A stretch of DNA of 64,000 nucleotides from Deinococcales bacterium. Its GTDB lineage: Bacteria; Deinococcota; Deinococci; Deinococcales; JAAFIG01. Below the pieces are notes generated by a model. It was given only the letters and a program-made list of their open reading frames with translations, searched no databases and was not told the DNA's origin. Each line of letters starts with the position of its first letter. Positions within the stretch are counted from its first letter, which is position 1. Location of the stretch: assembly GCA_043778225.1 (NCBI GenBank), contig JAYWGM010000086.1:10956-74955 (forward strand), read 5' to 3'. Both the position numbers and the translations under genes were made by a program. Shown piece by piece: positions 1 to 63,866 of the stretch.

Positions 1-642
1 AATTCAAATGAATCATCTCAATGGGTCATTATGGAATACCGCAGACGTCTTTCTGCTAATCTTTACTATGACTTAGCTCCCTTCACGACCAGCTTTGACA
101 TTCCGGGAGTCGGTACAATGACATCAGGTGCTTTGGTTTCTGGTTTGATTCTTGGACCAGTTGTTCCCACTCGCTGGAGAGATGCAGGCTGTGACCTAAA
201 CGCTGCTGGTGTGTTTGATCCTGTTATGACCAATTGGATTTGCGAAAAGATTAATCGTGCAGATACATCGCCAACCGCTCCAAAATACCCTAGCCCAGAC
301 CCAGACCCAAGACCAACAAACCAAGAATCACCAACATCTTTACCCGCCATTGCCAAAGGTTCGGATGGCTCATTTGATTTGGTACGTTTCAGCGCTCGTA
401 TGGCAGCTACAGTTCGTTGGATCAACGATAGCACGCCGCGTGGCACTTCAAGAATCTTGGTTGAAAATATCAGACCGACAGATGGCTTTTCAGTCGAATT
501 TACCACTGCTGGAATGGATGAACGCGGCGCAACTGAGGTACGTTTGCGTTTGCAGGGTGAACTGAATCGAGGTGGTCAGCCAGTCCGATTCCCAGCCCAG
601 CCACTCGAGTTTTTTTCTACACCTCGCAATATCGCACCATAG
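1..642 (+). CDS. Hypothetical protein, 5'-truncated by the window edge
   Basis: Frame of the 31..642 ORF is open back to base 1; Pro-rich linker; followed by a terminator. Confidence 0.6.
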   Translation, partial: NSNESSQWVIMEYRRRLSANLYYDLAPFTTSFDIPGVGTMTSGALVSGLILGPVVPTRWRDAGCDLNAAGVFDPVMTNWICEKINRADTSPTAPKYPSPDPDPRPTNQESPTSLPAIAKGSDGSFDLVRFSARMAATVRWINDSTPRGTSRILVENIRPTDGFSVEFTTAGMDERGATEVRLRLQGELNRGGQPVRFPAQPLEFFSTPRNIAP

Positions 643-654
643 GATAGAGCTAGT

Positions 655-683
655 AAAAAAGGCAGCCATATGGCTGCCTTTTT
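655..683. terminator. Bidirectional intrinsic terminator
   Basis: AAAAAA-GGCAGCC-ATAT-GGCTGCC-TTTTT between convergent genes. Confidence 0.85.
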
Positions 684-693
684 CATTACCTAC

Positions 694-2214
694 TCAGCGT
701 GGCATCGCCGTAAACCCAGCCAAACACATCTCGTCTCGAGTCCCTTCACCCCAAACGGTGTAGCGTGGCTCGAGTTGCTTTCCATCCAAATACGGTTGGT
801 TTTCTGGGCTGTTATCCCAAGTGCAAGTCAGCCGCACCACATCGCCCTTAGAAACTTCGATGGGAGTCTGCAAAGCATAGCCGCTCTGCCAGTGGAAATC
901 CCAGCGTGGAATATCAAGCAACACTTGGCGGTTTTTGTTAGGGTTTAACTCGAGCTTAATCGATTTACCAAGTAAGTGCATATGCCCTTGAACCCGCAAA
1001 ATACTGCGGTCGGCAGTCACAGGAAATTCGCATTGGGTGGTGGTGATACCATTTTCGTGCTTGGGCTGTTTTTGGCAGTAAGTCAGCAACAAGCCGCTTT
1101 TGAGAGCATTGGTCAGTTCGGGTTCTTGGTAATTTTCAACACTTTTGTAAGCCGCATCTCGAGAACAGGGGTTTTTTGGGTCGCTCGAGATTCCACTTGG
1201 GCAAGCCACCTCGACTGGTGATAAAAATAAACTCCCGCGCAAGCCCGTCATTTTTGCGCCTTTTGGTGCAAGGTTGAGTTTAGCCACAGTTCGGTCTGTG
1301 CCTTTTCCAGCCAATAAATTGTAATGCACTTGAAGCACCAGCACTGTGCCGGGTTTCATCGAAATTCCTGTGCCGCTTGGGTACTGTACGCCGCCAGCTG
1401 TGCCGGGAACCCAGTTACCCATGATGCTAAAGCCCATGCCGCTTGTGCCGCCACCAATCCGAATCGGCACACCGGGTCCGCCAAAGCACTCGTAGCCACC
1501 ACGACCATCGGCAGCGTTTTCGAGTTTACGCAATTCAGGAACCATCTGTGGTTCGACCGTAAAAATAATCACATGATGCACCATTTTTTTGTTTTCTGGC
1601 ACGATGTCGTAGCCCGTGATAAAGCGCTCGCCATCCAGTTTAGGGTCAACCACAAAGCAACGGTACTCGTCGGAATAATCAGATTTAGGCGTAAAATCCT
1701 TGCCAATGTCCATGGTCAAATCGGCATTTTGAATACGGCTGGTTGGCAGGACTCGAGGTTTGGCATCGGTGGTTTTACCCAAGGGTGCGCCAGCCCATGC
1801 CCAATTTGCCAAAATCGCAATTTCGTTGTCGCTTAGTTTGGTTTCGTCTTTAAATTTCGGGCTTTCGCCGCCGGGCATCCATGGTGGCATCTTTTTATTT
1901 TGCACCGCAAATTGCGAAGCTCGAGCATACTTGACTGCATCTTGGGGATTCTCGAGGCTAAATGGCGCAATACTGCCTTGACTATGGCAACCGAGGCAGT
2001 TCTTATCTAAAATTGGCTGGACATCGCGGTAATAGGTTGGCACATAGCTCAGGAGCGGCGGTTGGGTTTGCTGCATCCGCACAGGTTCAAAAACATTGTG
2101 GTGTCCTCGAGTGCGGGTTTCGCTGACCAAACTGTTTTGGACACTGAGGGTTCGAGCGGCAAAAGCGCCTCCCAAGAGGACGGCTACAGCAATCAACCAT
2201 TTTGGCTTTATCAT
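694..2214 (-). CDS. Secreted copper type II ascorbate-dependent monooxygenase-like protein with N-terminal CxxCH heme motif
   Basis: Signal peptide, CLGCH, MPPW, copper-ligand motifs VHH, VHY, HMH, EMC; start taken at MIKPKW. Confidence 0.75.
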   Translation of the reverse strand: MIKPKWLIAVAVLLGGAFAARTLSVQNSLVSETRTRGHHNVFEPVRMQQTQPPLLSYVPTYYRDVQPILDKNCLGCHSQGSIAPFSLENPQDAVKYARASQFAVQNKKMPPWMPGGESPKFKDETKLSDNEIAILANWAWAGAPLGKTTDAKPRVLPTSRIQNADLTMDIGKDFTPKSDYSDEYRCFVVDPKLDGERFITGYDIVPENKKMVHHVIIFTVEPQMVPELRKLENAADGRGGYECFGGPGVPIRIGGGTSGMGFSIMGNWVPGTAGGVQYPSGTGISMKPGTVLVLQVHYNLLAGKGTDRTVAKLNLAPKGAKMTGLRGSLFLSPVEVACPSGISSDPKNPCSRDAAYKSVENYQEPELTNALKSGLLLTYCQKQPKHENGITTTQCEFPVTADRSILRVQGHMHLLGKSIKLELNPNKNRQVLLDIPRWDFHWQSGYALQTPIEVSKGDVVRLTCTWDNSPENQPYLDGKQLEPRYTVWGEGTRDEMCLAGFTAMPR

Positions 2215-2278
2215 TTTGTTAGCGTACAACCAATTTGTCAGATTTGAATGTGAGCAGTAGATGATTTAAGCCCAAACA

Positions 2279-2986
2279 TTAACTTAGGGCGGCAATCAGC
2301 ACCGCCACCTCGGCAATTTCGACAATCGCCCCGTAGACATCGCCGCTAATGCCACCATTTAAGCGGCTTGCGGCAAACCACGCCACGCCAAGGGCTGCCA
2401 GCACCGCTACGACTGCCAGCTTGGGCGCAAGCAGCACCGCCGGCAGAGCAATCAAAAAGCCAACCCGCCAATTGCCTTCTCTCGAGCGTGCGCCAAGGCT
2501 TTCGGCTCGAGCGGCTGGAAAGAGGTTCATCGGGATTAACAAAGCGGCTCGAGCCAAAACGGGCGCAAGTAAAAGCGGCAGCCAAGCCTCGAGACTGCTC
2601 AGAGCGCTCCATTTGAGTAAAATATGCACTGCCCCAACGCCCAAGCCAAACGCGCCCATGTGGACATCCGATAAAATCTCGAGCCGTTGGGCTGGGGGCT
2701 TTGCCGCCAGAAGCGCATCGCCGCAATCCACCAAGCCATCAAAGTGCAGCATTCCGGTCAAGGCAAACCAGACCGCCAGCACCAAGGCGGCTGATACCGC
2801 ACTGGGTAAGCTCGAGACCAACAACCAAGTCAGGCAGAGCAACCCACCCAACGTCCAGCCAACGGCTGGATAATAGCCACTGGCATTTTGAAATTCGCCA
2901 GCTTTGACTTCACCCACGTGCGGCAGGGGCAAGGTGCTTAAAAAAGTATGGGCGAGGTGCAAGCCACGGATGATGCTCGAGTTCAC
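2279..2986 (-). CDS. cobS: Adenosylcobinamide-GDP ribazoletransferase (cobalamin synthase)
   Basis: TGMLHFDGLVDCGD, DVHMGAFG, GGISGDVYGA motifs; multi-TM. Confidence 0.9.
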   Translation of the reverse strand: MNSSIIRGLHLAHTFLSTLPLPHVGEVKAGEFQNASGYYPAVGWTLGGLLCLTWLLVSSLPSAVSAALVLAVWFALTGMLHFDGLVDCGDALLAAKPPAQRLEILSDVHMGAFGLGVGAVHILLKWSALSSLEAWLPLLLAPVLARAALLIPMNLFPAARAESLGARSREGNWRVGFLIALPAVLLAPKLAVVAVLAALGVAWFAASRLNGGISGDVYGAIVEIAEVAVLIAALS

Positions 2987-3097
2987 GGTTTATTCTAGCT
3001 GGATTTGTCGCAGCCCGTCTTTTATGGGTAGAATCTTGCTGTTCATTAAAGTAGGGGACTTAGGGGTTTTCGCCATTCTTTCTTTTGGAGGTCGTTT

Positions 3098-4255
3098 GTG
3101 AATGTGATTTTCTTATCCCCGCATTTTCCACCCAACTTTAGGCATTTTGTGCGTGGTCTACGTGAGGCGGGCGCAACCGTGCTGGGCTTGGGCGATGAGC
3201 CTTTTGATAACCTTCATTCGGATTTACGCGGCAAATTTCATGAGTATTACCGTGTGTCCGACATGGATAATTACGATGCCTTGGTGCGCGGCATGGGGCA
3301 TCTGACTTTCAAGTGGGGCAAAATAGACCACCTCGACAGCCTCAACGAACACTGGCTCGAGACCGAAGCAGCTATTCGCACCGATTTTAATATTGCTGGC
3401 ATTCAACTCGATTGGATTGGCAACATCAAACGCAAATCACAAATGAAACAGCGTTTCAGAGAAGCGGGCGTAGCCGTGGCTCGAGGCGAAGTTTGCACCA
3501 CTCCCGAAGCCGCCAAAGCCTTTATCCAAACCGTGGGCTATCCGATTGTTGCTAAGCCAGATATTGGAGTTGGCGCAGCCAAAACCTATAAAATTAACGA
3601 TGACTTTGAACTTGAGTTTTATCTGCGCGATAAACTGCCCGTAGATTATATTCTCGAGGAATTTATCAAAGGCGATATTGTCACCTTTGATGGTCTGACC
3701 GACAAAAACGGCGAGGTCTTATTTCTTGCCAGCCATCGTTACTCGAGGGGCGTGATGGAAACCGTCAACGAAGATGGCGATATTTATTATCATTCCGAGC
3801 GAATCATCCCGCCAAGTTTAATGCAAGCCGGTATGGCATCCCTAAAAGCCTTTGATGTCCGCGCACGATTTTTTCACCTCGAGTTTTTTGAGATAGACGG
3901 CGCAATCACTGCCCTCGAAGCCAATATCCGCCCGCCGGGTGGTTTGACTGTCGATATGTTTAATTATGCCAACGACATGGATGTCTACCAAGAATGGGCA
4001 AACTTGATTGTTAAAGGCGAATTTAAGGCAAAAGCTGACCGCCCATATCACACCGTTTATGTGGGGCGCAAAGACCACTTGCACTATCAACTCGAGCATG
4101 GCGCAGTTCTCGAGCAGTACAAACATCTGGTCTGTCATCACGAACGAATCATGAGCATTTTTAGCCGAGCGATTGGCAATTATGGTTATATTTTGCGCTG
4201 CCCAGACCTCGAGCCACTTTTGGCGGCGGCTGAAGCGATGATTGCCAAGCGGTAA
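3098..4255 (+). CDS. ATP-grasp domain protein
   Basis: FLSPHFP, VAKPDIGVGAAKT, EEFI, FFHLEFF, EANIRPPGG. Confidence 0.85.
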   Translation: MNVIFLSPHFPPNFRHFVRGLREAGATVLGLGDEPFDNLHSDLRGKFHEYYRVSDMDNYDALVRGMGHLTFKWGKIDHLDSLNEHWLETEAAIRTDFNIAGIQLDWIGNIKRKSQMKQRFREAGVAVARGEVCTTPEAAKAFIQTVGYPIVAKPDIGVGAAKTYKINDDFELEFYLRDKLPVDYILEEFIKGDIVTFDGLTDKNGEVLFLASHRYSRGVMETVNEDGDIYYHSERIIPPSLMQAGMASLKAFDVRARFFHLEFFEIDGAITALEANIRPPGGLTVDMFNYANDMDVYQEWANLIVKGEFKAKADRPYHTVYVGRKDHLHYQLEHGAVLEQYKHLVCHHERIMSIFSRAIGNYGYILRCPDLEPLLAAAEAMIAKR

Positions 4256-4333
4256 AAGCAGCCATGAGAAAACCTAAGGCTTGAGACTCAAAGCTCAAAA
4301 GCCCAAATCCCATCACCACTTACGAGGTTTTTT

Positions 4334-5065
4334 ATGAAAATTGAACATCACCAATGGTTTTCAAACCACCTTGGACACGATATGCACTTTAAGGTTTATG
4401 GGCATTTCGGGCAACCCATTTTGGTTTTTCCGGCTCAAGAAGGGCGTTATCACGATTATGAAGCCTTTAAGATGATTGAAGCCTGTTCAGCCTTGATTAA
4501 GGCTGGGCGAGTCAAATTTATCTGTATTGACAGCGTGGATTGGCAAACATGGACCAATAAAGGGGTTCATCCTGCCGAGCGGGCGCGGCGGCATGGCGAT
4601 TACGAAAAATATGTGATTAACGAAGTCGTGCCATGGATACAAAACAACACCGGTTTAGCCACCACTTGGGCGACTGGTTGCAGCATGGGGGCATTGCACG
4701 CCACTAATTTTTTCCTCAAACGCCCCGATGTTTTTGATGGTTTGATAGCCTTGTCTGGTTTGTACAGTATGCAGAGTTTTATTGGTGATTACGGCGATGA
4801 CAACACCTTTTATAACAGCCCATTGCAGTATTTACCAAATTTATCTGACCCGTGGCATCTCGAGCATTATCGCCGTGCCAAAATTGTTTTTGCAGTCGGG
4901 CAGGGCAACTGGGAAGTCGAAGCGATTGCCGATACCCAAGGAATGCAGCAACTACTGGCTTCCAAGGGTGTACCCGCATGGTTTGATTATTGGGGCTATG
5001 ATGTGCCGCACGACTGGACTTCGTGGCGCAAAATGATGCCGTATTTTCTCGAGAAAATTTTATAA
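4334..5065 (+). CDS. Putative esterase (alpha/beta hydrolase fold)
   Basis: YGHFG, GCSMG nucleophile elbow, HDW. Confidence 0.85.
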   Translation: MKIEHHQWFSNHLGHDMHFKVYGHFGQPILVFPAQEGRYHDYEAFKMIEACSALIKAGRVKFICIDSVDWQTWTNKGVHPAERARRHGDYEKYVINEVVPWIQNNTGLATTWATGCSMGALHATNFFLKRPDVFDGLIALSGLYSMQSFIGDYGDDNTFYNSPLQYLPNLSDPWHLEHYRRAKIVFAVGQGNWEVEAIADTQGMQQLLASKGVPAWFDYWGYDVPHDWTSWRKMMPYFLEKIL

Positions 5066-5091
5066 AGGGCGAGGCAATCTGCCCTAGGAGA

Positions 5092-5472
5092 TTACTCGGC
5101 AATCACTTCAATTTCGACCAAACAAGACTTGGGTAATTCACGCACTGCAACTGTGGTGCGGGCTGGATATGGCGCAGCAAATTTTGTGGCATAGACGGCA
5201 TTCATGGCAGCAAAATTTGCCATGTCCGACAAGTAGACATTGCACTTAAAAACATCATCTAGGGTCTTGCCAGTTGCCTCAAGAACAGCTTTGATGTTCT
5301 TAAAAACTTGCTCGGCTTGTTCGGTCACACCACCAGCCACCAGTTCGCCCGTGGCTGGGTCTATTGGGGTCTGACCTGAGCAGTAAATCAAACCGCTTTT
5401 GGTGCGAACACCTTGAGAATAAGGTCCAATGGCGGCGGGTGCGTTGGCAGAAGCAAAAGTATCTCTGGGCAT
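5092..5472 (-). CDS. RidA family (YjgF/YER057c/UK114) reactive intermediate deaminase
   Basis: APAAIGPYSQ, SGQTPID, PARTTV, VEIE; GGAGGA RBS before MPRDTF. Confidence 0.9.
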   Translation of the reverse strand: MPRDTFASANAPAAIGPYSQGVRTKSGLIYCSGQTPIDPATGELVAGGVTEQAEQVFKNIKAVLEATGKTLDDVFKCNVYLSDMANFAAMNAVYATKFAAPYPARTTVAVRELPKSCLVEIEVIAE

Positions 5473-5498
5473 GGGTAAATCCTCCAATAGAGAGTCTA

Positions 5499-6893
5499 TC
5501 AGTTTAAGGTTCTCGATTGACCGGGGGTCAGCAGTTGTCTGGCACGTTCGATATAGCCTTCTAAGGTGATTGCCCATTCATCGGCTGGCTCGAGGTGCGG
5601 CAGGGCTAAACTGGCATGGTGCAGAATTCTTTCGGGGCTGCGCCAACCGAGTTGCACCAGTGTATCGGCGGTCATTTGGTTGGCAATCACCCAATCGCGG
5701 CTGGCTTCTGGGGCGTTCTCGAGGGCGCGGGCATAGTGGTCTAAGGCTTCGTCGAGGCGATAATACTCGTAAGCAAGGTTTGCCAACAATAAACTGGCTG
5801 GAATAACTGCGCCCATCTCGAGCGCGATTTTGGCGGCGCTTTCGGCTTGGTCAAAATTGCCAAGGCGGTACTCGAGTTCAGCAAGGTCGGCATGGATTTC
5901 GGCTTTGTGCGGGTAACTGACCTCGCTTAAAGCCCGTTGTAAACTCTGGCGTGAATCCTCGGACAAATTAGCATCCATTTGGGCTAAACCCAGTTCGTGT
6001 AGCGCAAAACCTCGGTCTGGCTCTTGGGCAAGTATCACGGCTCGTTCAAAGGCTGGAATGGCTTGTGTCCAATCCTCGAGTGCGGCAAGACTTTGGGCTA
6101 AAACCAAGGTGACTGGAAAACTGGCTTCGCCGATACTGGTTTCAAGCGCCACTGCCAACTCGGAGCGCTGTTTTGCCAGCCGTGGATTCTCGAGCATCAG
6201 GTGCGCTCGGGCTTCGAGGTGCAATCGGGCGGCGGCATCCAAAGGAAATTCCATACCAAACAGCGCTGCTTGGCTTTCCTCGAGTGCCAAAAGGGCTTCG
6301 TGCGGTTCTTCGAGGTCTAAAAGCATGGCGGCTTTGTCTTGCAATAAACTGGCTTTGTCTGCCCCAGTTGCCCCCAACGAGGCTTGCTGATACGCCAAGC
6401 TGGCATCGCGCCACCGCCCCAATTCCTCGAGCGCCCCACCGCGCCACGACCACGCCCGCCACTGCAAATAGCTGGGTAAATCGTTCAGTGCTTCCAGAAC
6501 CGCCAAACCAAGTTCGGCTTCGCCAAGCGAGACCAAGGCACTGCCAGCATAAAACCGCGCCGTCTGGCTACCATTCGAGCCAAGCCGTGCCAATTCGATG
6601 GCTTTAAGTCGCGCTGGTTCGTCGGGCTGGATAAAATCTTCTAAACCAAACGCTAAGCTGTTGGCTTTCAGTGCCAAGTACAGTGCATCCGACTGTAATT
6701 CTGGTTCTATTTGCTCGAGACAACGGCTTAATCCTTCTGCGCCACCAACCCCAAAGAGCGTATAAACTGCCGCCAACTCGAGCGCCAATACTGACTCCTC
6801 GCGTCGGTCACGCGAACGCTGCAAGGCACGTTCCAAGACCGAAAAAGCCAATTCAAAATCGTTGTTTTCTAAAGCGCTTTGGACTTGGGTCAT
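5499..6893 (-). CDS. Tetratricopeptide repeat protein
   Basis: Ala/Leu-rich helical repeats with TPR spacing. Confidence 0.7.
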   Translation of the reverse strand: MTQVQSALENNDFELAFSVLERALQRSRDRREESVLALELAAVYTLFGVGGAEGLSRCLEQIEPELQSDALYLALKANSLAFGLEDFIQPDEPARLKAIELARLGSNGSQTARFYAGSALVSLGEAELGLAVLEALNDLPSYLQWRAWSWRGGALEELGRWRDASLAYQQASLGATGADKASLLQDKAAMLLDLEEPHEALLALEESQAALFGMEFPLDAAARLHLEARAHLMLENPRLAKQRSELAVALETSIGEASFPVTLVLAQSLAALEDWTQAIPAFERAVILAQEPDRGFALHELGLAQMDANLSEDSRQSLQRALSEVSYPHKAEIHADLAELEYRLGNFDQAESAAKIALEMGAVIPASLLLANLAYEYYRLDEALDHYARALENAPEASRDWVIANQMTADTLVQLGWRSPERILHHASLALPHLEPADEWAITLEGYIERARQLLTPGQSRTLN

Positions 6894-10136: not shown

Positions 10137-10385
10137 ATGAGAACAACCGTCCGCCTCAACGATCAACTATTGCGCGACGCGAAACAATTTGCCTTGCAGC
10201 ACAATCAGACACTGACAGATTTAATTGAAAAATCCTTGCGCCAAATGATTCAAGCCAAGCCGATTAAACCCATAGAACTACCAACATGGGATTTAGGTCA
10301 ACCACTTGTCAATCTTGATTTTTCCGATACCTCGGCAATCTTGGATTTTCTTGACGAAGGCATAGATGTTCATTCTCGACGTTAA
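10137..10385 (+). CDS. VapB-like RHH antitoxin
   Basis: MRTTVRLNDQLL N-terminus; overlaps PIN gene. Confidence 0.8.
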   Translation: MRTTVRLNDQLLRDAKQFALQHNQTLTDLIEKSLRQMIQAKPIKPIELPTWDLGQPLVNLDFSDTSAILDFLDEGIDVHSRR

Positions 10386-51966: not shown

Positions 51967-52505
51967 GCACACAATCTCGCCCCGACAACGTTATTCTTGG
52001 TTCGTTGGATGATTTAATCAACCTCTCGCGCTCCCGCAGTTTGTGGCCTCTTACCTTTGGCATTGCCTGCTGTGCGATCGAAATGATGAACTCCTCGGCT
52101 ACTCGTTACGATATGGATCGCTTTGGGGTTTTTTACCGCAACACGCCGCGCCAAGCCGATGTGATGATTGTCTCGGGGACAGTCAACAAAAAAATGGGTA
52201 AGGTCGTGCGCCAACTCTGGGAGCAAATGTCCGAACCCAAATGGGTCATCAGCATGGGCGCGTGCGCCAACCAAGGTGGACCGTTTCGTCAGGGCTACAG
52301 CGTGGTCGAGGGTGTGGATAAAATTATCCCAGTGGATATTTATGTTCCCGGTTGCCCACCACGCCCCGAAGCCCTGATGCAAGCGCTTTTGTTACTGCGT
52401 GACAAAATTGCTGACCCAGCCGCCCGTTATGTGCCGGGAATGCAAATGGATGCCGATTTTGACCCTCTGGCAGAACCCGGTCACGATGGTCGGGTGTTAC
52501 TGTGA
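51954..52505 (+). CDS. nuoB: Complex I subunit B
   Basis: [25 protein letters not shown]. Confidence 0.96.
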
Positions 52506-53536: not shown

Positions 53537-53548
53537 GGAGGGGACGAT

Positions 53549-54733: not shown

Positions 54734-56196
54734 GTTTTCTCGAGAATAAAGAAGCCCGTTTGCCGCTTGAGCGTATTTCTGCGCCGTCCGATAAGCATTA
54801 CCGAATGCGAATGAAGCATCACGGCTTGCTCAATGCCAATCCGCGTAAATCTGGTTTGTTGGCAGCCATTATTGGTTATGCGCTGCTTTTTGGGGCGGCG
54901 CATGGGGTTTTGATTCTGGCGTTTCAAGTTATTCCAGCGCTCCTAACCAGTGGCTTACCGTTTCCGTGGACTGGTTTTGGTTTAGCCAAGGATAGTTTTT
55001 GGTTTAACGTCATTTACGGCTTACTCGCGCCTGTGCTTGCCTTTTTGTTTGTGGCGGTGGTGGCGCTGATCAACATTCTGATGCTGCGTAAGTACCTCGC
55101 TAAAGTCCAGAACCGTTATGGACCGCTTCACAACGGACCTTCTGGCAGTTTACAAACAGTTTATGACGCACTCAAACTGGTCTCCAAAGAAGATTACACC
55201 CCAAAAATGGTCGAAGAAACCATCTTCACGCTTGCGCCAGTGCTGGTTTTTGTTTCTGCTTTCTTATTAATGGCGGTTATTCCATTTGCGCCTGGATGGG
55301 TTTTTGCCAATGTCGAAGCGGGCGCAATTTTTATTATTGCGGCTGGCACAATCGGCGGCTATGGTGTCTTGCTGGCGGGTTGGAGCATGAACAACAAGTA
55401 CGGCTTAATGGGTGGCTTACGTGCCGCCGCCCAACTTGTTTCTTACGAAGTGCCGCTTTCGATTAGCTTACTTTCGGTCTGTGTTTACGCTGGTAGCATG
55501 AACCTTTCTAAAATTGTTGAAGCACAACAAGCCCTGTGGTTTGCGATTCCGCTTTTTATTCCCTTCGTTATTTACTTAATTGCGGGTTTAGCCGAACTTA
55601 AAATGACTCCGTTTGACCTCCCAGAAGCCGAATCCGAACTGGTGGCTGGTTTTAACACCGAGTACGGCGGAATGCGTTTTGGATTTTTCTTTGTTGCCGA
55701 ATTTGCCGAGTTGTATTTACTTCCCGCACTTATGGCGGTTTTCTTTCTGGGTGGCTGGTTTCCACCAAGCATTCCAACCTTTAACATTCCGTTTCTATCC
55801 GAATGGTCGGGTGGCTCGAGTACCTTACAACTGATGCTCAAAGCCAACATCGCCGAGGGTGAAACCATGACTTGGTGGAATACCCTCTTTCAGCCGGGCG
55901 GCTTGCTGGTTGGCGCACAATACAGCTTTTGGTTTTTACTTAAAGGCGCGGCTGGTGTCTATTTCTATATGTGGATTCGGGCGACCCTGCCGCGCTTCCG
56001 CGATGACCAACTGATGGAACTGTGCTGGAAAGGCTTAATTCCACTGTCCTTAATCGGTTTGGTCTTGGCGGCGGTCTCGAGACTGCTGCCCGCTGTTGGC
56101 ATCACAATTTCGATTCTGGTCGGTGGCGCATTTATTATTTTGATTCTGCGCGGTGCGTTCTTTCCAGCTTCCTCGAGTAAACAGGTGAAAGCATGA
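54730..56196 (+). CDS. nuoH: Complex I subunit H, with extensions
   Basis: QNRYGP, NNKY, SYEVP, PFDLPEAESELVAG, RATLPRFR. Confidence 0.93.
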   Translation: MSFLENKEARLPLERISAPSDKHYRMRMKHHGLLNANPRKSGLLAAIIGYALLFGAAHGVLILAFQVIPALLTSGLPFPWTGFGLAKDSFWFNVIYGLLAPVLAFLFVAVVALINILMLRKYLAKVQNRYGPLHNGPSGSLQTVYDALKLVSKEDYTPKMVEETIFTLAPVLVFVSAFLLMAVIPFAPGWVFANVEAGAIFIIAAGTIGGYGVLLAGWSMNNKYGLMGGLRAAAQLVSYEVPLSISLLSVCVYAGSMNLSKIVEAQQALWFAIPLFIPFVIYLIAGLAELKMTPFDLPEAESELVAGFNTEYGGMRFGFFFVAEFAELYLLPALMAVFFLGGWFPPSIPTFNIPFLSEWSGGSSTLQLMLKANIAEGETMTWWNTLFQPGGLLVGAQYSFWFLLKGAAGVYFYMWIRATLPRFRDDQLMELCWKGLIPLSLIGLVLAAVSRLLPAVGITISILVGGAFIILILRGAFFPASSSKQVKA

Positions 56197-57332
56197 GCCT
56201 CTTAAAAGATATTTGGAGCGCTGTGTCCGGCATTGGCAAGGGCATGGAAAAAACCTACGAAGAACAATTCGATCCAATTTTTACCGAAATGTACCCGTTT
56301 GAAATGCCAAAACTGCCACCAACCAGTGTTCAGAGTTTGGCACTGATTAAAAACGAGGATGGCTCGGACAGGTGTGTTTCATGCCTCGCGTGCGAAAAAG
56401 TCTGCCCCAGCCAAGTGATTACCATCGAGCGCAAGAAAAACCCAGCCGGTAAAGGCTTTGTCCTCGAGCGCTTTGACATTGATTTGGTTAATTGTATGTA
56501 CTGCGCCGCCTGTGTTGAGTCCTGCCCAGCCAGTGCAATCGTCACGATTCAGGACTTTGAAATGAGTACCCCGAACCTACAAACCTTAAAAGCCGACAAA
56601 GACTTTTTAGATTTCCAAGGCATTCGCGCCCAACAGTGGTACAGCCCAAAAATTGGGGTTGAATACCGCGAGAACGTCAGCAACGACAATATCCACGGTG
56701 CAATTGTCAAAGCGCCTTTAATGGATCAACCCGGTGGTGCAGCCGAACTTGAGAAACTTCGTGCGGCTGGCACAGAAATTCCAGTCAACAATGCCCGTCG
56801 TCCAGCCAATGCGATGTCGGAATTATCGGCTTTGGTCTACAAAGAACTCAAGTCCGAACCCATCAGCGCCCCAGCCAAAAAACTCGAGAATACCGTACCT
56901 GTTGCGGTCAACATCCCTGTAACCATTCCCGCCCCTGTTGCTGTTGCCGTCGAAACTGTCTCGAGCGCCGTGCCATCTGCCCCAAAATCCAAGAAAATCA
57001 AACGCTGGGGAGAACCTGCTACCGACGACTCGAGCCAACCCGAAGCCGCTTCTGCTATTGCCGTCGCGCCCGTAATTAACCCCATCAACGAGCGACCCAG
57101 CCCGTCAGGTGCATCTTTAGGGTCAAGAGAGGGGGTCGGCGAAGCGCCCCAAGCCCATCAGGTGCTGCTTTCAGGGCAAGAAGCCGGGGGGAGTTCGCCC
57201 GCCGAGGCTACCCTCGAAAAAGCCCAAGCCGCTCCAGTCTCGAGCCTTGAGCCTGTTGCCCAAGTCATCTCGAGTCCAGAACCCGAAAAACCAGTCAATC
57301 CCAAAATCAAACGTTGGGAGCCAAAATCATGA
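56193..57332 (+). CDS. nuoI: Complex I subunit I with a long disordered C-terminal tail
   Basis: Two CxxCxxCxxxCP motifs. Confidence 0.92.
   Translation: MSLLKDIWSAVSGIGKGMEKTYEEQFDPIFTEMYPFEMPKLPPTSVQSLALIKNEDGSDRCVSCLACEKVCPSQVITIERKKNPAGKGFVLERFDIDLVNCMYCAACVESCPASAIVTIQDFEMSTPNLQTLKADKDFLDFQGIRAQQWYSPKIGVEYRENVSNDNIHGAIVKAPLMDQPGGAAELEKLRAAGTEIPVNNARRPANAMSELSALVYKELKSEPISAPAKKLENTVPVAVNIPVTIPAPVAVAVETVSSAVPSAPKSKKIKRWGEPATDDSSQPEAASAIAVAPVINPINERPSPSGASLGSREGVGEAPQAHQVLLSGQEAGGSSPAEATLEKAQAAPVSSLEPVAQVISSPEPEKPVNPKIKRWEPKS
57077..57209. repeat. 133-bp in-frame repeat shared with nuoC
   Basis: See 53146-53278. Confidence 0.92.
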
Positions 57333-57949
57333 CCGAAGTCAACACTGTTTTCTTCTATCTGGTAGCACTAGGCATTCTGTCTACTGCAATCTACGCCGTC
57401 GCTTCGCCTAAACTCTTAAACTCGGCGGTGTCGCTTGCCTTTTCATTTTTTGCGATTGGTGGGCTTTTTGCGATGTTGGGCAACACATATTTATTTATCT
57501 TACAATTCCTGATTAACGCTGGTGCAATTCCAATCGTGACCGTCTTTATCATCATGATGACCCAATCGCGGCGAATTCGCTTGCGGTCTAATCTCAATGC
57601 GGCGGCAGCACTTCTGGCAATTGTGGTGCTGGCGGGTAGTTTGTGGTCGTTTTGGAACAGATACCAAGGTTCGGCAGTGACACAAGGTAAACAAATTACA
57701 CCGACACCGACACCTGAGTTGGGCGTAAAGCTCCTGAGTGCCGATGGTACGCTGTTGGCGTTTGAACTTGCCAGTGTTTTGCTACTTCTTGCGATGATTG
57801 GTGCAATTGTCTTAACCAAACGCGACGGTGAAACCATCAAAGGCGATGTTGGTGTATTATCCGATGTTGGTTCGTCAGTTACGAGTGGCGAGTTGGCGCG
57901 TCCAGCCGCAACCATCGAAGCTGCCTCGAGACAAGAAGGGGTGGCTTAA
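57329..57949 (+). CDS. nuoJ: Complex I subunit J
   Basis: Q-x3-NAGAI, FIIMM, FELASVLLLLAMIGA; ATGA overlap with nuoI. Confidence 0.9.
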   Translation: MTEVNTVFFYLVALGILSTAIYAVASPKLLNSAVSLAFSFFAIGGLFAMLGNTYLFILQFLINAGAIPIVTVFIIMMTQSRRIRLRSNLNAAAALLAIVVLAGSLWSFWNRYQGSAVTQGKQITPTPTPELGVKLLSADGTLLAFELASVLLLLAMIGAIVLTKRDGETIKGDVGVLSDVGSSVTSGELARPAATIEAASRQEGVA

Positions 57950-58299
57950 TGGAGTCTATTCTTGCGCCAATTCGGGCGTTTGCCAATTCTGGGATTACGG
58001 TTAATCATTTTATTGCCCTAGCCATGTTGCTGTTTTTGGTTGGGCTGTACGGTGTTTTAACCCGCCGCAACATTCTGGCAATTTTAATGAGCGTCGAAAT
58101 CATGCTCAACGCCGCGATGCTGGTTTTTGTGAGTGTGGCTGCCTACAGTGGCGATGCCACCAAAACCGGACCGTTGTTTGCTTTGTTTATCGTTGCCATT
58201 GCCGCCGCCGAGGTGGCTGTGGGTCTCGCCATTTTTATCAATGTCTTTAGAAGTAAGGGTGGCGTAACCACCGAAGACTTGATGGAAATGAAGAACTAA
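57949..58299 (+). CDS. nuoK: Complex I subunit K
   Basis: RRN, MSVEIMLNA, AAAEVAVGLA. Confidence 0.93.
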   Translation: MESILAPIRAFANSGITVNHFIALAMLLFLVGLYGVLTRRNILAILMSVEIMLNAAMLVFVSVAAYSGDATKTGPLFALFIVAIAAAEVAVGLAIFINVFRSKGGVTTEDLMEMKN

Positions 58300-58311
58300 A
58301 GGAGGGGATAA

Positions 58312-60528
58312 ATGTTTATTGATTACGCTTTGTTAATTCCCCTGCTTCCCGCGTTCGGTTGGCTGATGATTTCGTTGTTCAGCAAATCGCTGGGCGGCAA
58401 GGGCAGCGCGTGGTTAGCAACCACGATGATTGGTCTGAGTGCCGTGATTGCGATTGGTTTATTTGCCGATACGTTCTCGAACGCACCGATTTGGAAAGCC
58501 GATGTGCTGGGTAAAATCTATAAACTCGAGAAGGAAATTAAGGTTCTCGAGAAAGCCGAGAAAGCCGAAAAGGCTGTAGGCGAAGCACCCAAAGTCGAAA
58601 CCCCAATGCTGGATGGCACAACCCCTAAAGCTGAGGGCGAACATAGTGCCAGTCCAGAACTCTTGGCACTCGAGGAAAAACTCGAGGAGTACAAGTCCGA
58701 AGCCCTCGAGTCTCGAGCGGCGGGTGGTTTTCCGTTTACTCGAGAATGGACGTGGTTAGCGATTAAGGGCGAAGCTGGCTTGCCGTTTGGTTTATTTGTA
58801 GACCAGTTGGCGGCAATCATGCTCTTGATGGTGACGATTGTTTGCTTTTTGATTCACTTATTTAGTATTGGTTATATGGCACACGAAGAACGTTATCCAA
58901 CGTTTTTTAGCTACATCAACCTGTTTGCGGCTGCCATGCTGGCGATGGTTTTGGCAAAAAACCTATTTCATGTATTGCTTTTTTGGGAAATCATGGGTCT
59001 GATGTCGTACTTGCTGATTGGCTTTTTTTATAAGAAAAAAAGCGCCCAGCAAGCTCAGAAAAAGGCTTTTTTAACGGTGCGGATTGGCGACCTTGCGTTT
59101 ATGGCTGGGTTGTTCTGGTTGTACAGTGCTTTTGGTACGCTCGATATTCCAACCCTTTTGGCGACACCACACAGCGAACTCGAGACTAAGTTGGGTGGGG
59201 CGGCGTTTGGCATTGGCTTACTGCTGTTTATTGCGGCTGTTGGTAAATCAGCCCAATTTCCGCTTCACGTCTGGTTGCCCGACGCGATGGAAGGACCAAC
59301 CCCTGTTTCTGCCATGATTCACGCTGCAACCATGGTTGCAGCAGGTGTTTACTTGGTGGCTCGAGTCTTCCCGATTATGGATGTTGGCGGTGTGCTGCCA
59401 ATTATTGCCTGGCTCGGTGGCTTTACAGCCCTTTTTGCTGCCAGTCTTGCTCCTGCCCAAGCCGATGCCAAAAAGATTATGGCGTTCAGTACCTTGTCGC
59501 AGTTGGGCTTAATGTTTATGGGCTTGGGGTTGTTTGGCTACGCGGCGGCGTTGTTCCATTTACTGACCCACGCATTCTTTAAGGCGCTCTTGTTTTTAGG
59601 TTCGGGCAGCATGATTCATGGGGCTGGGACACAGGATATTTTTGAAATGGATAATTTGTCTAAGTACCAAAAATGGACTTGGGCGACCGTAGCAATTGGT
59701 TCATTAAGCCTGATAGGTTTCCCGTTGACGGCTGGTTTTTGGTCAAAAGACGAAATTCTGCACGTTGCCCAGAGTGCCAATCCAGCCTTATTTATTGTTG
59801 GCTGTTTGGTTTCGGTGTTGACTGCCTTTTACACCACCCGAATGTTTATTATTGCTTTTCATAAGCCTAAGCAAATTTCGCCGTGGGGTCTGGTAGCTTG
59901 GAACAACGAGGGCGAGCCAAGCCTGAACATGACCCAAGCCGAAGTCGAAGAACAAAAGAAACACGACCACGCTCATGAAATTGGCGACCATCCGCACGAA
60001 TCGGGTCCTGAAATGATTATTCCGCTTGTGTCCTTAGCCACCCTAGCCACAATCATGGGTTTTGTTGGGTCTCCATTTGCTAATTTCTGGCTACAGCGTT
60101 TTGTCTATGTTGGCGCAGTACCAGAAGTCGCGCCGCTCGAGTCACTCTGGGTTGGCTTTGTCATCAGTGCGATTCTGGTAGTTGTGGGTGCTGGGGCTTC
60201 GATTGCTTTGTACTGGAATAGCGATGTCACCAAAGCTCGAGCGCCCGAATGGTTGACTCGAGTTTTACAGCGCCGTTACTACATCGATGATTATTTCTAC
60301 GCAGGTCCTGCTAAGGTTGGCAACGATATTCAATGGTTGTTTGCTTGGCTTGACAAGAACGTGGTGGACAGAATCGTTGACTTTATCGGTGGGCTGGTGG
60401 TCGTGATTGGCGATGCCACGCGCCGTATTCAAACAGGTGCATTGGGCTGGTACGCTGGTCTGACCGTGATTGGTGGTTTGGCATTGATTCTTGCCTTTGC
60501 TGTCGCCTTTGCTGGAGGTGGCAAATGA
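58312..60528 (+). CDS. nuoL: Complex I subunit L
   Basis: WEIMG, GKSAQFPLHVWLPDAMEGPTPVSA, THAFFKALLF. Confidence 0.95.
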   Translation: MFIDYALLIPLLPAFGWLMISLFSKSLGGKGSAWLATTMIGLSAVIAIGLFADTFSNAPIWKADVLGKIYKLEKEIKVLEKAEKAEKAVGEAPKVETPMLDGTTPKAEGEHSASPELLALEEKLEEYKSEALESRAAGGFPFTREWTWLAIKGEAGLPFGLFVDQLAAIMLLMVTIVCFLIHLFSIGYMAHEERYPTFFSYINLFAAAMLAMVLAKNLFHVLLFWEIMGLMSYLLIGFFYKKKSAQQAQKKAFLTVRIGDLAFMAGLFWLYSAFGTLDIPTLLATPHSELETKLGGAAFGIGLLLFIAAVGKSAQFPLHVWLPDAMEGPTPVSAMIHAATMVAAGVYLVARVFPIMDVGGVLPIIAWLGGFTALFAASLAPAQADAKKIMAFSTLSQLGLMFMGLGLFGYAAALFHLLTHAFFKALLFLGSGSMIHGAGTQDIFEMDNLSKYQKWTWATVAIGSLSLIGFPLTAGFWSKDEILHVAQSANPALFIVGCLVSVLTAFYTTRMFIIAFHKPKQISPWGLVAWNNEGEPSLNMTQAEVEEQKKHDHAHEIGDHPHESGPEMIIPLVSLATLATIMGFVGSPFANFWLQRFVYVGAVPEVAPLESLWVGFVISAILVVVGAGASIALYWNSDVTKARAPEWLTRVLQRRYYIDDYFYAGPAKVGNDIQWLFAWLDKNVVDRIVDFIGGLVVVIGDATRRIQTGALGWYAGLTVIGGLALILAFAVAFAGGGK

Positions 60529-62057
60529 TTACCGCGTTAATTCTGATTCCTATTTTGGCTGCGATTTTAGCGGCGGTCTCGAGTACCGAAGTTGCCAAGC
60601 GGGTGGCGGTGGCTGCCAGTTTAATCACCACGATCATGAGTGCAATCATGTACTTTTCGTACAACACAAGCAGTGGGCAATTGGCATTTGTTGAAAAAGT
60701 GCCGTGGATTCCTCAGGCGGGTATTGGCTATTTTGTTGGCTTGGATGGTTTATCGCTGCCGTTTGTGTTCCTGACTTCTCTTTTAACGCTGGTTTCGGTC
60801 TTGGCTTCATGGGATGAACCCAAAAAGAGCTTCTATGCGCTGTTTTTAGTGATGCAGGCTGGTGTGACGGGTGTTTTCGGGGCGCTGGATTTAATTCTTT
60901 ACTTTCTATTCTGGGAAGTTGTTTTAATCCCAATGTTCTTTATTATTCTGGTCTGGGGTTACGAAAACCGTCGCTACGCTGGTATGAAATTTGTGATTTA
61001 TTCCTTGACAGGCTCGGTTTTGATGCTGGTTTCAATGTTGGCGCTCGCCTTTGGGGTCGCAAGTGCCACAGGTAAGCCATTATCGTTTGATTACGAAGTT
61101 TTGCTGGCGAATCTCGAGACCATCAAAGCCCTGCCGGGGATTGCCTTGATTTTTTGGGGCTTTATGATTGCCTTCTTAATTAAGTTGCCAGCTTTTCCAG
61201 TCCATACATGGTTGCCTCATGCCCACACCGAAGCCCCGACTGGCGGTTCGATTATGTTGGCGGGTGTGCTGTTAAAAATGGGTGGTTATGGCATTCTGCG
61301 TTTTAATTTAGGCTTAATGCCCGAGCAAATGCAGCAATTCCAAACTGTTCTGGCAATCCTTGCCACCATTGGTGTAATTTACGGCGCGTACTGTGCCATG
61401 GCACAAAAAGACCTCAAGCGGATGGTGGCTTACTCGAGCGTCAATCACATGGGTTATGTGCTGCTCGGGATTGTTTCTATGACTGCCATGGGGATTCATG
61501 GCGCGGTCTATCAGATGGTGGCGCACGGTATTATTACGGGCTTAATGTTTATGATGGTCGGGTTTTTGAGCCACCGAACCCACACTCGAGAAATTGCCAA
61601 GATGACAGGTATTTACAACGCCATGCCAATCTTGGGCGCAATCATGTGGATGGCGTTTTTAGGTGGGCTTGGCTTACCGGGTATGGCTGGCTTTATTGGT
61701 GAATACACGGCATTGTCTGGCGCAATTCAAAATCCTGCTACGGCGATTTACGGTTATATTTCTTTGGTTGGCATTATTGTCACGGCTGGATTTATTTTGT
61801 ATGCGGTGCAGCGTGTCTTGCTTGGGCGTGACCCTGCGGCAGCCGACGACCACGGACACGACGACCACTCGAGCCATACCGCAAGCCATAAACACCATGA
61901 CCTTTCGCCGCTCGAGATTGCGGCGGCGGCACCTTTGGTGATTTTGAGTGTGGTGCTTGGGTTGTATCCTGCACTTTTAACACCGTGGATTGATGGCAGT
62001 ACACAACTCTTGCTCGAGACTGCCAAACGGGTCATGGCACTGGGAGGTGGACAATGA
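60525..62057 (+). CDS. nuoM: Complex I subunit M
   Basis: WEVVLIP, HTWLPHAHTEAP, LLKMGGYG, YSSVNHMG. Confidence 0.95.
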   Translation: MITALILIPILAAILAAVSSTEVAKRVAVAASLITTIMSAIMYFSYNTSSGQLAFVEKVPWIPQAGIGYFVGLDGLSLPFVFLTSLLTLVSVLASWDEPKKSFYALFLVMQAGVTGVFGALDLILYFLFWEVVLIPMFFIILVWGYENRRYAGMKFVIYSLTGSVLMLVSMLALAFGVASATGKPLSFDYEVLLANLETIKALPGIALIFWGFMIAFLIKLPAFPVHTWLPHAHTEAPTGGSIMLAGVLLKMGGYGILRFNLGLMPEQMQQFQTVLAILATIGVIYGAYCAMAQKDLKRMVAYSSVNHMGYVLLGIVSMTAMGIHGAVYQMVAHGIITGLMFMMVGFLSHRTHTREIAKMTGIYNAMPILGAIMWMAFLGGLGLPGMAGFIGEYTALSGAIQNPATAIYGYISLVGIIVTAGFILYAVQRVLLGRDPAAADDHGHDDHSSHTASHKHHDLSPLEIAAAAPLVILSVVLGLYPALLTPWIDGSTQLLLETAKRVMALGGGQ

Positions 62058-63520
62058 TTTTTGTGGCATTGGTTTTCTTGATGATTTCCTCGATGGCTTT
62101 GTTTATTGCCGCCACCTTTAAGGGCGCAGAGGACAAACACGCTGGTCAGATTTTTGGTGGCATTAGCCTTGCGGTTTACGGTATTACGGCATTGCTGGCA
62201 GCCACCGCTTGGAACGACACGACCATTCATTATGGCGTGATTAAATCTGGCGGACTTGCTACCCTCGGCACAATCATCATGTGCGGTATTGGTGCATTAA
62301 CCGTCGGTGGCGTGATGGCAAACCCCGAGAAGTACAAAGCGGGGGTTGGCGAATTCTTTGGCTTTATTGCTTTTGTGGTTTTTGGTGGCGCAATTATGGT
62401 CAGCACCAATCATTTGCTGGTGCTGCTGCTGGGTATTGAACTCTCGAGTTATGCGACTTACATTTTGGTTGGTTACTACCGTGACGACCGTTTTTCCAAC
62501 GAAGCCGCCAGCAAATACTTTCTGCTCGGTGCGGTCGCCAGTGGCTTTCTAATTTTTGGTATGAGCTTGGTTTATGCCAGTGTTGCTTTTACCAATGGCT
62601 CATTGACCTATTCAGATTTAGGCACAACCTTAGCGGGTCTGGTCGGACAAACCGTTGGGATTCCAGCACTGATTTACCCAGGACTGGCAATGTTGCTGGT
62701 TGGCTTTGGCTTTAAGATGGCACTTGCACCATTTCATTCTTGGACTCCAGATGCTTACCAAGGCGCTCCAACCATGGTTGCGGCAATCCTTAGCGTCGGA
62801 CCTAAAGCGGCGGTCGTGATTGCCCTCTCGAGCCTCCTGACCACGGCTTTTCCAGTACCAGAACTCTCGAGCGCTTGGAAAAATGCAATTGCGGTGCTGG
62901 CAATTTTATCGATGACGATTGGCAACTTGATGGCACTGCAACAAACCAACCTCAAACGTTTACTGGGTTTCTCGAGCATCGCTCAACTGGGCTACGTGGT
63001 AATTGGTGTGGCGGTCGGCAGTCTCGAGGGAACAAGTGCGGTCATTTTGTACATGGTTGGTTATTCCATTACCAACATCGGTGCATTTATGATTATTGCT
63101 GCCCTGCGCGATTCTGGGGTCGGCGAGAACATCGAAGACATTGCTGGACTGGTCAAACGCAACCCATTTGCTGCCGTGATGCTGGCAGGTTTCTTTATGG
63201 GCTTGGCTGGCGTACCTGTATTGGCAGGATTTTTAGGTAAGTTGCTGCTCTTTAAGAGTGCCGTGGACGCTGGCATGATTGCTCTAGCCGTGATTGCTGC
63301 TTTGAATGTCGTGCCGAGTTATTACTACTACTTTAGAATCATTATTTCTGCCATCTTTAGCGAACCAAAAGACGCGAGAACTTTCGAGTTAAATGCGACG
63401 GCTACCACCACGCTTGCCTTAGCGCTTGGCGGTGTGGTGCTGCTTGGAATTTACCCAACACCGCTCTTAAACATCATCAATGAAGCTGTCAAAGTCCTAC
63501 CACTTTTTGCGGGAAGATAA
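62054..63520 (+). CDS. nuoN: Complex I subunit N
   Basis: EAASKYFLLG, PFHSWTPDAYQGAP, KRLLGFSSI. Confidence 0.95.
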   Translation: MIFVALVFLMISSMALFIAATFKGAEDKHAGQIFGGISLAVYGITALLAATAWNDTTIHYGVIKSGGLATLGTIIMCGIGALTVGGVMANPEKYKAGVGEFFGFIAFVVFGGAIMVSTNHLLVLLLGIELSSYATYILVGYYRDDRFSNEAASKYFLLGAVASGFLIFGMSLVYASVAFTNGSLTYSDLGTTLAGLVGQTVGIPALIYPGLAMLLVGFGFKMALAPFHSWTPDAYQGAPTMVAAILSVGPKAAVVIALSSLLTTAFPVPELSSAWKNAIAVLAILSMTIGNLMALQQTNLKRLLGFSSIAQLGYVVIGVAVGSLEGTSAVILYMVGYSITNIGAFMIIAALRDSGVGENIEDIAGLVKRNPFAAVMLAGFFMGLAGVPVLAGFLGKLLLFKSAVDAGMIALAVIAALNVVPSYYYYFRIIISAIFSEPKDARTFELNATATTTLALALGGVVLLGIYPTPLLNIINEAVKVLPLFAGR

Positions 63521-63866
63521 GTTTCTCGAGTAAACAAAAAAGCCCCTTCTCGAGAAGGGGCTTTTGCTGTGATGGCATTAGTTTTGACCTCAACGCCCTG
63601 ACCAGCAAAGTCACCACGGCTAGCGGCTTAGGGCTAAATCGGGTCGAGGCTCGAGGCGGACAATTTGAATACTCGAGATTATCTGAACCAGTCCAAACAA
63701 ACACACCATCGTGTTCGACAATTTCGCCAACCAATTTCGGGCGAAGTAGAATTTCACCATCCACCAAACGCATCTCGAGGGTGCTGTTTGGTTTCAAGCT
63801 CAGTTCTTCGCAGATGGGTTTAGGAATCAGAACCCGACCAAAACGGTTAATTTGAATGGTTCCCAT
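63489..63866 (-). pseudogene. Orphan AbrB/MazE/SpoVT-type antitoxin with a run-on C-terminus
   Basis: INRFGRVLIPK...EILLRP domain; frame runs through the terminator into nuoN; no toxin follows. Confidence 0.55.
63538..63565. terminator. Bidirectional terminator of the nuo operon
   Basis: Perfect 28-bp palindrome AAAAGCCCCTTCTCGAGAAGGGGCTTTT. Confidence 0.85.

Follow-up and report, generated by a model that had tools for sequence, protein, structure and literature searches.

HIP1, the highly iterated palindrome of cyanobacteria, has gone unexplained for three decades and has been regarded as a peculiarity of that lineage. The subject of this report is a six-base palindrome, CTCGAG, which recurs in a comparable way in a 64,000-nucleotide stretch of DNA from a Deinococcales bacterium (assembly GCA_043778225.1, contig JAYWGM010000086.1, positions 10,956 to 74,955 of the forward strand; this whole stretch is the window in what follows) and throughout the assembly from which the stretch comes, here called G000. 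HIP1 itself is the word GCGATCGC, for which a density of 0.3–2.7/kb is quoted in the accessible portions of Elhai (2015; PMC4390886), a paper which, as far as those portions go, covers cyanobacteria only. Like HIP1, CTCGAG is a short GC-rich palindrome, and is over-represented tens of times both in and between genes; the two are also alike in having spread by substitution, in being conserved beyond neutral expectation and in being scarce in imported DNA. They differ in phylum, in the word, which has six and not eight bases, and in density, CTCGAG being the denser at 6.2/kb. The sites of DmtA and DmtC lie within HIP1, whereas our searches found no conserved cognate methyltransferase for CTCGAG, and the spacing of HIP1 has been described as quasi-periodic (Xu et al., 2018, PMC5861425, as cited in the accessible text of PMC13756078), whereas the gaps between copies of CTCGAG are near-exponential.

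Of the features by which a highly iterated palindrome is recognised in Elhai (2015), those of abundance, position and conservation are found here, in that CTCGAG is the top hexamer, lies in coding and non-coding DNA, has spread by substitution and is conserved beyond neutral expectation; the lineage is not cyanobacterial, the nearest public records being Deinococcales. An earlier note on the window had proposed an HIP1-like system outside the cyanobacteria, and this much of it stands, the word being exact, hyper-abundant, spread by substitution, kept beyond the neutral level, scarce in low-GC islands and family-wide; the causes that it suggested, namely methylation-directed repair, chromosome organisation or DNA uptake, are at this stage hypotheses. 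Alternate palindromes have been described from single cyanobacteria, such as GGCGCC in Calothrix PCC 7103 (PMC4390886, accessible portions). These too are highly over-represented six-base palindromes, which in their hosts replace HIP1; according to the abstract of the same paper they belong to single strains and have a matching methyltransferase, whereas CTCGAG belongs to a whole family, in all five genera sampled. GGCGCC has only 3 copies in G000.

In Escherichia coli, a repair enzyme tied to a methyltransferase (Dcm/Vsr) raises the count of CCWGG slightly and depletes its T-containing precursor. The effect on CTCGAG is, in contrast, 27-fold, its T-containing neighbours are not depleted and no Vsr was found in G000. 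The uptake sequences of the Pasteurellaceae (uptake signal sequences, USS) and Neisseriaceae (DNA uptake sequences, DUS) are asymmetric words of 9–12 bases, present at about 1/kb and often paired in terminators, which accumulate by drive through biased uptake and recombination. CTCGAG, unlike these, is a six-base palindrome with uninformative flanks, occurs at 6/kb and is rarely found at terminators (17 of 2,074 intergenic sites). As with USS and DUS (see also PMC1939737), however, it is a word over-represented across a family, sits in genes and alters proteins, and competence genes are present. Restriction-modification (R-M) systems of the XhoI/PaeR7I type share with it the identical six bases and an all-or-none specificity, but the targets of such systems are avoided by their hosts, whereas CTCGAG is 27-fold enriched and the commonest hexamer. 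CTCGAG has been given as a 5-methylcytosine (m5C) motif of Halorubrum (PMC8112702, accessible portions) and a hot-spring epigenome preprint (10.64898/2026.06.24.734251) lists it among the methylated motifs of Armatimonadota and of a host-virus "Group 2"; in the accessible portions of the preprint it is not tied to Deinococcota. In the full-text literature searched, no iterated palindrome, CTCGAG included, was found described for Deinococcota, although supplements and papers outside that search may hold one.

Abundance in the window, the genome and the family

Between positions 604 and 63779 the window holds 383 copies of CTCGAG (5.98/kb), compared with 7.78 expected (standard deviation 2.74, maximum 14) from 100 dinucleotide-preserving shuffles, and the description of the word as highly iterated across the window is thereby upheld. 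The copies lie on coding DNA of both strands and in the spacers, with 193, 64 and 100 in the three reading frames and 26 in intergenic DNA. Ten had been reported in a TPR-repeat gene on the reverse strand (5499–6893), and ten were counted there, at 5589, 5718, 5817, 5871, 6075, 6189, 6279, 6426, 6714 and 6777. Two stretches said to lack the word do so. The first, at 13283–15171 on the forward strand, is an AT-rich island (GC 0.337) with no copy between 13277 and 15172, and comprises a GmrSD_N (DUF262) gene at 13318–14418 and a RiboL-PSP HEPN gene at 14415–15071. The second, at 1–603, ends at the first site of the window, 604, and is part of a 1,198-bp gap which reaches back to position −594 on the contig; with a normal GC of 0.483, this gap is not a compositional island and falls in the tail of the spacing distribution.

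The source assembly (4.03 Mb in 107 contigs, GC 0.487, 89% complete, with the window on contig C86) carries 24,877 copies, equal to 6.2/kb or one per 162 bases, and CTCGAG ranks first among its hexamers. The observed/expected ratio (O/E) is 26.7 at zero order (composition), 47.5 under a first-order and 15.1 under a second-order Markov model; the maximal-order value of 1.16 was discarded as uninformative, as the pentamers themselves already carry the signal. In the 3,770 open reading frames (ORFs) of a crude greedy caller, which make 92% of G000 coding, 13,434 sites fall in frame 0 (CTC followed by GAG), 4,604 in frame 1 and 4,750 in frame 2, with a further 2,074 sites between ORFs and 15 at gene edges. 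The sites are thus in all frames, as had been claimed, 46% of them off frame 0. The density between ORFs is 6.4/kb and that inside them 6.15/kb.

The closest public metH loci come from metagenome-assembled genomes (MAGs) named "Deinococcales bacterium" (90, 88 and 87% protein identity), and five public Deinococcales MAG records among the metH loci, additional to the family genomes described next, have 22–39 sites per metH, compared with 0–3 in other phyla. All 19 genomes of the family that were searched (five genera, G000 included) hold 12,028–35,442 copies, or 4.3–6.8/kb, and the excess is also seen in G033, a family genome in a single contig. In DNA sampled from seven family genomes and the window, with a local GC of 0.45–0.61, the O/E is 8.6–29, in all frames and in the spacers. 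Elsewhere in the order, seven genomes sampled from families f2, f4 and f5 have an O/E of 3.7–8.7, mostly in frame 0 and with 0.3–2.5/kb in spacers, and spell Leu-Glu as CTCGAG in 30–64% of cases where codon usage alone predicts 13–36%; a weak excess of the word may thus be older than the family. A further family, f3 (36 genomes), which is probably Deinococcus itself, is depleted of CTCGAG, with 37–1,193 copies per genome; it is depleted of GAGCTC too, and for CTCGAG it represents the opposite extreme within one order. The extreme state is specific to this Deinococcales family, and in this uncultured group the word is a highly iterated palindrome in the full sense.

Viral contigs were searched by a three-site pattern, which gave at least 126 stretches, and the 80 with long flanks were looked at. 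The richest among the matches listed, L175 and L214 from IMG/VR (GC 0.66–0.71), have 6.7–7.2 CTCGAG/kb, and GGCC is not depleted in them. A tblastx comparison of six viral loci (L175, L186, L208, L214, L216 and L245) with G000 gave no match.

A force on the exact word

The word is sharply bounded. Among the 16 NTCGAN words in G000 CTCGAG has its 24,877 copies and the remaining ones 34–1,454, and the flanks carry at most 0.03 bit of information. Words one mismatch away have an O/E of 0.15–1.41 with three transition neighbours at the top, the commonest being the deamination-type neighbours TTCGAG (1.37) and CTTGAG (1.41), which are not depleted. The same exactness is visible in codon choice. Of 19,481 Leu-Glu pairs 69% are spelled CTCGAG, whilst, outside the context of the word, 9.2% of the codons for Leu are CTC and 22.7% of those for Glu are GAG; an Arg between NCT and GNN is encoded by CGA in 88.9% of cases, compared with about 13% elsewhere, and a Ser between NNC and AGN by TCG in 82%. 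Relative to matched contexts without the rest of the word, the odds for CTCGAG are 16–464, typically 40–100. The boosts are weakest against the transition neighbours (CTT, GAA, CGG and TCA), and transversion neighbours are disfavoured at least as strongly as transition neighbours. The O/E is steady at 24.5–27.8 over gene classes with a GC of 0.38–0.57 and drops only in 82 genes with a GC below 0.38. The advantage is tied to the exact hexamer and operates on the DNA itself, being similar in all frames and in intergenic DNA, and the force is uniform in strength over frames and gene classes. As all alternatives are disfavoured and the C-to-T neighbours undepleted, a Vsr-like correction of a single mismatch type is argued against, and either a bias between whole alleles, with or without the word, or selection at each site is argued for. 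The tRNA genes of G000 carry 6 sites in 5.3 kb, compared with 32.6 expected at the density of the genome; 68 such genes were called, and four that carry CTCGAG are clustered on contig C19.

The force extends to proteins. No dipeptide of the G000 proteome is more over-represented than Leu-Glu (O/E 2.33), and the gene of the B12-dependent methionine synthase, metH (15068–18904, forward strand), has 36 sites, 23 of which encode Leu-Glu. The protein has 26 Leu-Glu pairs, whereas MetH of other phyla, among those listed, has 4–10 pairs and 0–3 sites. At the 23 sites, Leu-Glu occupies 172 of 1,101 cells (15.6%) in 49 distant orthologues, compared with a control dipeptide identity of 38.3%, the usual residues there being Ile-Glu, Val-Glu, Leu-Asp and Leu-Ala; Leu-Glu has replaced Ile-Glu, Val-Glu, Leu-Asp and similar pairs under the pressure of CTCGAG. 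The same gene contains two in-frame insertions, at about 16062–16186 and 18203–18298, which are copies of a dispersed GC-rich repeat and are missing from metH of G006, G009 and G011. Dozens of contigs in G003, G006, G007 and G011 carry short matches to the two insertions, frequently at their ends, and in G000 there are 44 matches to the one and 8 to the other; the insertions look like small mobile repeats that are tolerated inside the protein.

Gain and loss of sites, which the earlier note had proposed to follow in orthologues, were traced by codon-by-codon alignment of metH, the nuo operon (NADH dehydrogenase subunits, 51475–63520, forward strand) and two neighbouring genes in ten family genomes, with 9–18 kb for each; synteny of the whole region around metH was dropped as a basis for the comparison, since only metH and one short block could be aligned. 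In relatives of the same genus 71–77% of the G000 sites are kept (73/103, 41/53, 43/59, 60/83 and 60/85), whereas any hexamer is kept in 28–38% of cases and identity at four-fold sites is 0.46–0.56. At frame-0 sites compared between G000 and G003 the third base of CTN is still C in 35 of 38 and that of GAR still G in 37 of 41. With other genera 17–40% of sites are shared, compared with 11–17% for any hexamer. Where sites differ, they align without gaps to ordinary hexamers in the orthologues, from which it follows that the word spreads by substitution. In many cases two to four of the six bases differ, the aligned relatives having TATGAA or TTAGAA, for instance, where G000 has CTCGAG; as synonymous divergence is very high, stepwise and concerted change look alike here. 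The sites have been held in place whilst the surrounding synonymous positions neared saturation, and the force on CTCGAG is old and still active across the family.

Spacing of the sites and loss of other palindromes

Beyond codon phase and a short-range avoidance, no periodicity is visible in the gap distribution, to which no formal periodicity test was applied. Gaps above 1.5 kb number only 19 and cover 45.5 kb together, nearly all of low GC. At the short end, no two copies abut in G000 and sites less than about 20 bases apart are under-represented; abutting sites would create GAGCTC, which itself has only 24 copies. Sites exactly 7 bases apart (CTCGAGNCTCGAG) were seen 123 times, two to four times the counts at distances of 8–11 bases (30–53). 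When the protein is held constant and only synonymous choice at neighbouring Leu-Glu pairs is considered, pairs two codons apart are both spelled CTCGAG in 0 of 136 cases and those three to five codons apart at 0.51–0.74 of expectation, and at six codons or more the choices are independent; the share of CTCGAG is 0.755 at isolated pairs, higher than the 0.68 at pairs 13–20 codons apart. This avoidance of close pairs points to local saturation or interference, and a protein footprint would explain it.

CTCGAG was also said to form the centre of the terminator of the nuo operon, and a terminator-like hairpin is present after nuoN at about 63534–63565 on the forward strand (−21.2 kcal/mol), with the word at its centre (63549–63554). 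A palindromic extension of at least 4 bp is seen at only those 17 of the 2,074 intergenic sites in the genome, and a general role in termination was set aside as too rare.

That restriction-type palindromes are normally depleted, as the earlier note remarked, holds in extreme form for most other palindromes of G000. The O/E is below 0.1 for 31 of the 64 six-base palindromes, many of which number 1–30 in the 4 Mb, with single copies of AGGCCT, GACGTC and GGGCCC, 3 of GGCGCC, 8 of CTTAAG and 24 of GAGCTC, and among four-base words GGCC has 131 copies (O/E 0.01) and GATC an O/E of 0.13. Seven palindromes are not depleted (AAATTT, AGCGCT, CAATTG, TTGCAA, GAATTC, TCATGA and CCATGG), so that the erasure is word-specific, as a long history of restriction systems would give. 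When the 63 palindromes other than CTCGAG are pooled, their O/E is 0.28–0.54 in family DNA and 0.50–1.00 outside the family. A nuclease of the EcoRV family is present in G000, where GATATC has 13 copies. It is encoded together with a D12 methyltransferase, the two at 3845–5610 of locus L122 (G000, contig C66, 62857–71597), matching the near-absence of that word. A history of restriction fits the many methyltransferase genes, the EcoRV-family gene with its scarce GATATC and the pooled depletion at the level of the family. In the case of TTCGAA, 13 of the 34 copies in G000 lie inside tRNA genes, an erased palindrome surviving mainly where function fixes the sequence.

What might keep CTCGAG abundant

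An all-or-none specificity for six bases argues for a protein of the restriction or modification type rather than a nucleoid protein or an uptake receptor that tolerates variants. The explanation that we tentatively favour, whilst holding it at somewhat less than even confidence, is that a protein with the specificity of a restriction enzyme labels DNA as self and favours alleles which bear the word in recombination, transformation or repair. Such a protein would be a dimer recognising CTCGAG, perhaps in modified form, and the word so recognised would identify DNA as belonging to the family. Natural transformation, recombination or heteroduplex correction could each be the route by which alleles with the word are preferentially kept or copied during exchange or repair, and the word would spread by molecular drive together with weak selection, a scheme also put forward for uptake sequences and, of late, for HIP1. 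For the latter a methylation-dependent enhancement of transformation has been reported (PMC13756078, accessible portions), and it is in line with this recent view that a mark of self DNA is preferred here. The comEA gene to which the earlier note pointed is present as a ComEA-like gene at 26822–27358 on the forward strand (SLBB and HHH_3, helix-hairpin-helix, domains), and ComEC and DprA are also present in G000. In contig C89 (locus L123, about 1461–5071) a low-GC pair, made up of a 277-aa protein and a D12-class methyltransferase, has dprA some 0.5 kb upstream of it; this may be a chance insertion.

Several observations weigh against this explanation. Searches of G000 for methyltransferases, XhoI-family proteins, Vsr and MutH identified no protein that recognises the word. 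The genome has more than 20 DNA methyltransferase genes, among them at least five m5C, at least five N6_N4 and at least three D12 genes, three M subunits of type I systems and several enzymes of the Eco57I or ISP type, but the search for a CTCGAG methyltransferase, which the earlier note had proposed, gave no family-wide candidate: no methyltransferase was found by Pfam family searches as one orthologue in all family genomes, PF00145 having no match in G010 (91% complete) and PF02086 none in G006, G008 and G010. In G010, where no m5C gene was found, the density of the word is at its family minimum (4.3/kb) and the count of GAGCTC at its maximum (568), though this is a single case. Two candidates were rejected. 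An N6_Mtase/Eco57I/TaqI_C protein (L114, 3185–5137, 650 aa) was found in only 3 of 61 genomes of the order (E ≤ 1e-30); homologues of about 50% identity are widespread in Proteobacteria, and its nearest solved relatives, BsaXI and BseCI, are uninformative on CTCGAG. An m5C methyltransferase (L104, 3953–4948, on contig C33 of G000) is syntenic and 82–88% identical in 6 of 7 genomes of the genus, but is confined to that genus, other genera matching only its catalytic half at 27–58%. Directly behind it in G000 is a low-GC HNH nuclease gene with no CTCGAG, the two genes together spanning 3953–5582 of L104; in the G003–G007 loci that were read, the m5C gene has no nuclease neighbour and no room for one. 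No methyltransferase specificity could be assigned from matches to Pfam, NCBIfam (30 proteins of R-M regions) or the PDB. The XhoI family (PF04555) had no match in G000, and the control search likewise matched in no genome.

Other counts against it concern the word and the competence genes. The transition neighbours are about five-fold commoner than the other non-site alternatives, which a simple all-or-none advantage does not predict; a 6-bp word gives little information for telling self from foreign DNA; and the families of ComEC and DprA match in 10 and 11 of 14 control genomes, and so do not discriminate. The near-exponential gaps (mean 160.6, coefficient of variation 0.998) show no evident periodic architecture, and the short-range avoidance could come from hairpins that one copy forms with another in single-stranded DNA or in RNA (−6.4 to −8.2 kcal/mol).

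A related and rather unlikely possibility, in which the depletion of the other palindromes is the second half of the picture, is a two-sided economy: a very large and shifting R-M arsenal together with frequent DNA exchange would have purged about half of the 6-bp palindromes to 1–80 copies per genome, whilst CTCGAG, once in every 160 bases, would be the self mark of the whole family, read by a protein other than a conserved methyltransferase and influencing which damaged or incoming DNA is retained.

Methylation-directed repair, either in the model set out for HIP1 by Elhai (2015; PMC4390886, accessible portions) or as very-short-patch repair of the Dcm/Vsr kind, would have a methyltransferase label the parental strand, and near-sites would be ratcheted towards CTCGAG through repair by a mismatch enzyme or a nicking one. 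The wealth of methyltransferase genes (several of Eco57I/TaqI_C type among them), the presence of MutS1 and MutS2 in G000 and the syntenic m5C enzyme, free of a nuclease neighbour in G003–G007, would suit it. However, neither Vsr (PF03852, with a control matching in 3 genomes) nor MutH (with a control matching in E. coli) was found in the 89%-complete G000, no methyltransferase orthologue was found family-wide, and the undepleted TTCGAG and CTTGAG, with transversion neighbours disfavoured at least equally, are not what it predicts; we consider it unlikely.

Chi-like action is a still weaker candidate. Short Chi words exist in other bacteria, and a palindrome, being read both ways, could stop resection and load recombinase at random double-strand breaks, which would be selected for in a relative of the radiation- and desiccation-resistant Deinococcus. 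The high and even coverage, with so few long gaps, the stronger choice of the word by isolated than by crowded Leu-Glu pairs and its scarcity in low-GC imported genes all fit. The known Chi words are, to our knowledge, asymmetric, a nuclease or helicase partner was neither sought nor found, and the depletion in family f3, taken as Deinococcus, speaks against it.

A structural or RNA role, as the binding site of an abundant nucleoid protein or as a mark or pairing element in RNA, seems equally improbable. Being a palindrome, the word appears as CUCGAG whichever strand is transcribed, two copies can pair with the energies given above and close pairs are avoided, and a few terminators carry the word as their hairpin centre; but nucleoid and RNA-binding proteins seldom require six exact bases and the one-off words have no comparable excess, the intergenic density equals that of coding DNA and the spacing has no periodicity beyond codon phase.

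That the word is a by-product of codon or dipeptide preference, or an artefact of assembly, is refuted for this family, although the former fits much of the milder, mostly frame-0 excess in the seven genomes of the order outside it: outside the word both CTC and GAG are in the minority among the codons for their residues, the excess is shared by every frame and by intergenic DNA, which rules out an origin in the codon pairs of one frame, and with sites over all 107 contigs and the word in 19 of 19 family genomes, single-contig G033 included, as well as five other public Deinococcales MAGs, an artefact of a single contig, which the earlier note had allowed for, is ruled out as well.

Neighbouring genes and what the palindrome means

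The CTCGAG-free island of the window is part of a defence islet (12159–15071), in which a YhcG/DUF1016 PDDEXK nuclease gene with a normal density of the word (12159–13175) adjoins the word-free GmrSD_N and RiboL-PSP HEPN pair; in G006 the equivalent place upstream of metH is occupied by a pair of N6_N4 methyltransferase genes. Genes of toxin-antitoxin type (a PIN protein, a nucleotidyltransferase/HEPN pair, a RES-domain protein and a MazE-like ORF) lie at 10366–10785, 30087–30879, 33702–34280 and 63492–63941.

For those working with such genomes there are practical consequences. Scarcity of CTCGAG flags imported DNA in them, the word distorts the codon and dipeptide statistics on which gene finding and binning depend, and XhoI, provided that the site is unmodified, is predicted to reduce this DNA to pieces of about 160 bp. 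The near-loss of so many other palindromes is of interest in its own right, for the way in which restriction systems mould genomes. With a second case, independent, denser and with another word in another phylum, highly iterated palindromes are seen to arise generally from some process at the level of DNA, and the 19 word-rich genomes of the family, its sister families with a weak excess and the one depleted sister family provide a comparison set for phylogenetic profiling. The two-sided economy of palindromes would, if true, be an undescribed kind of DNA self-recognition, one that could be studied in a second phylum and that may share its logic with HIP1.

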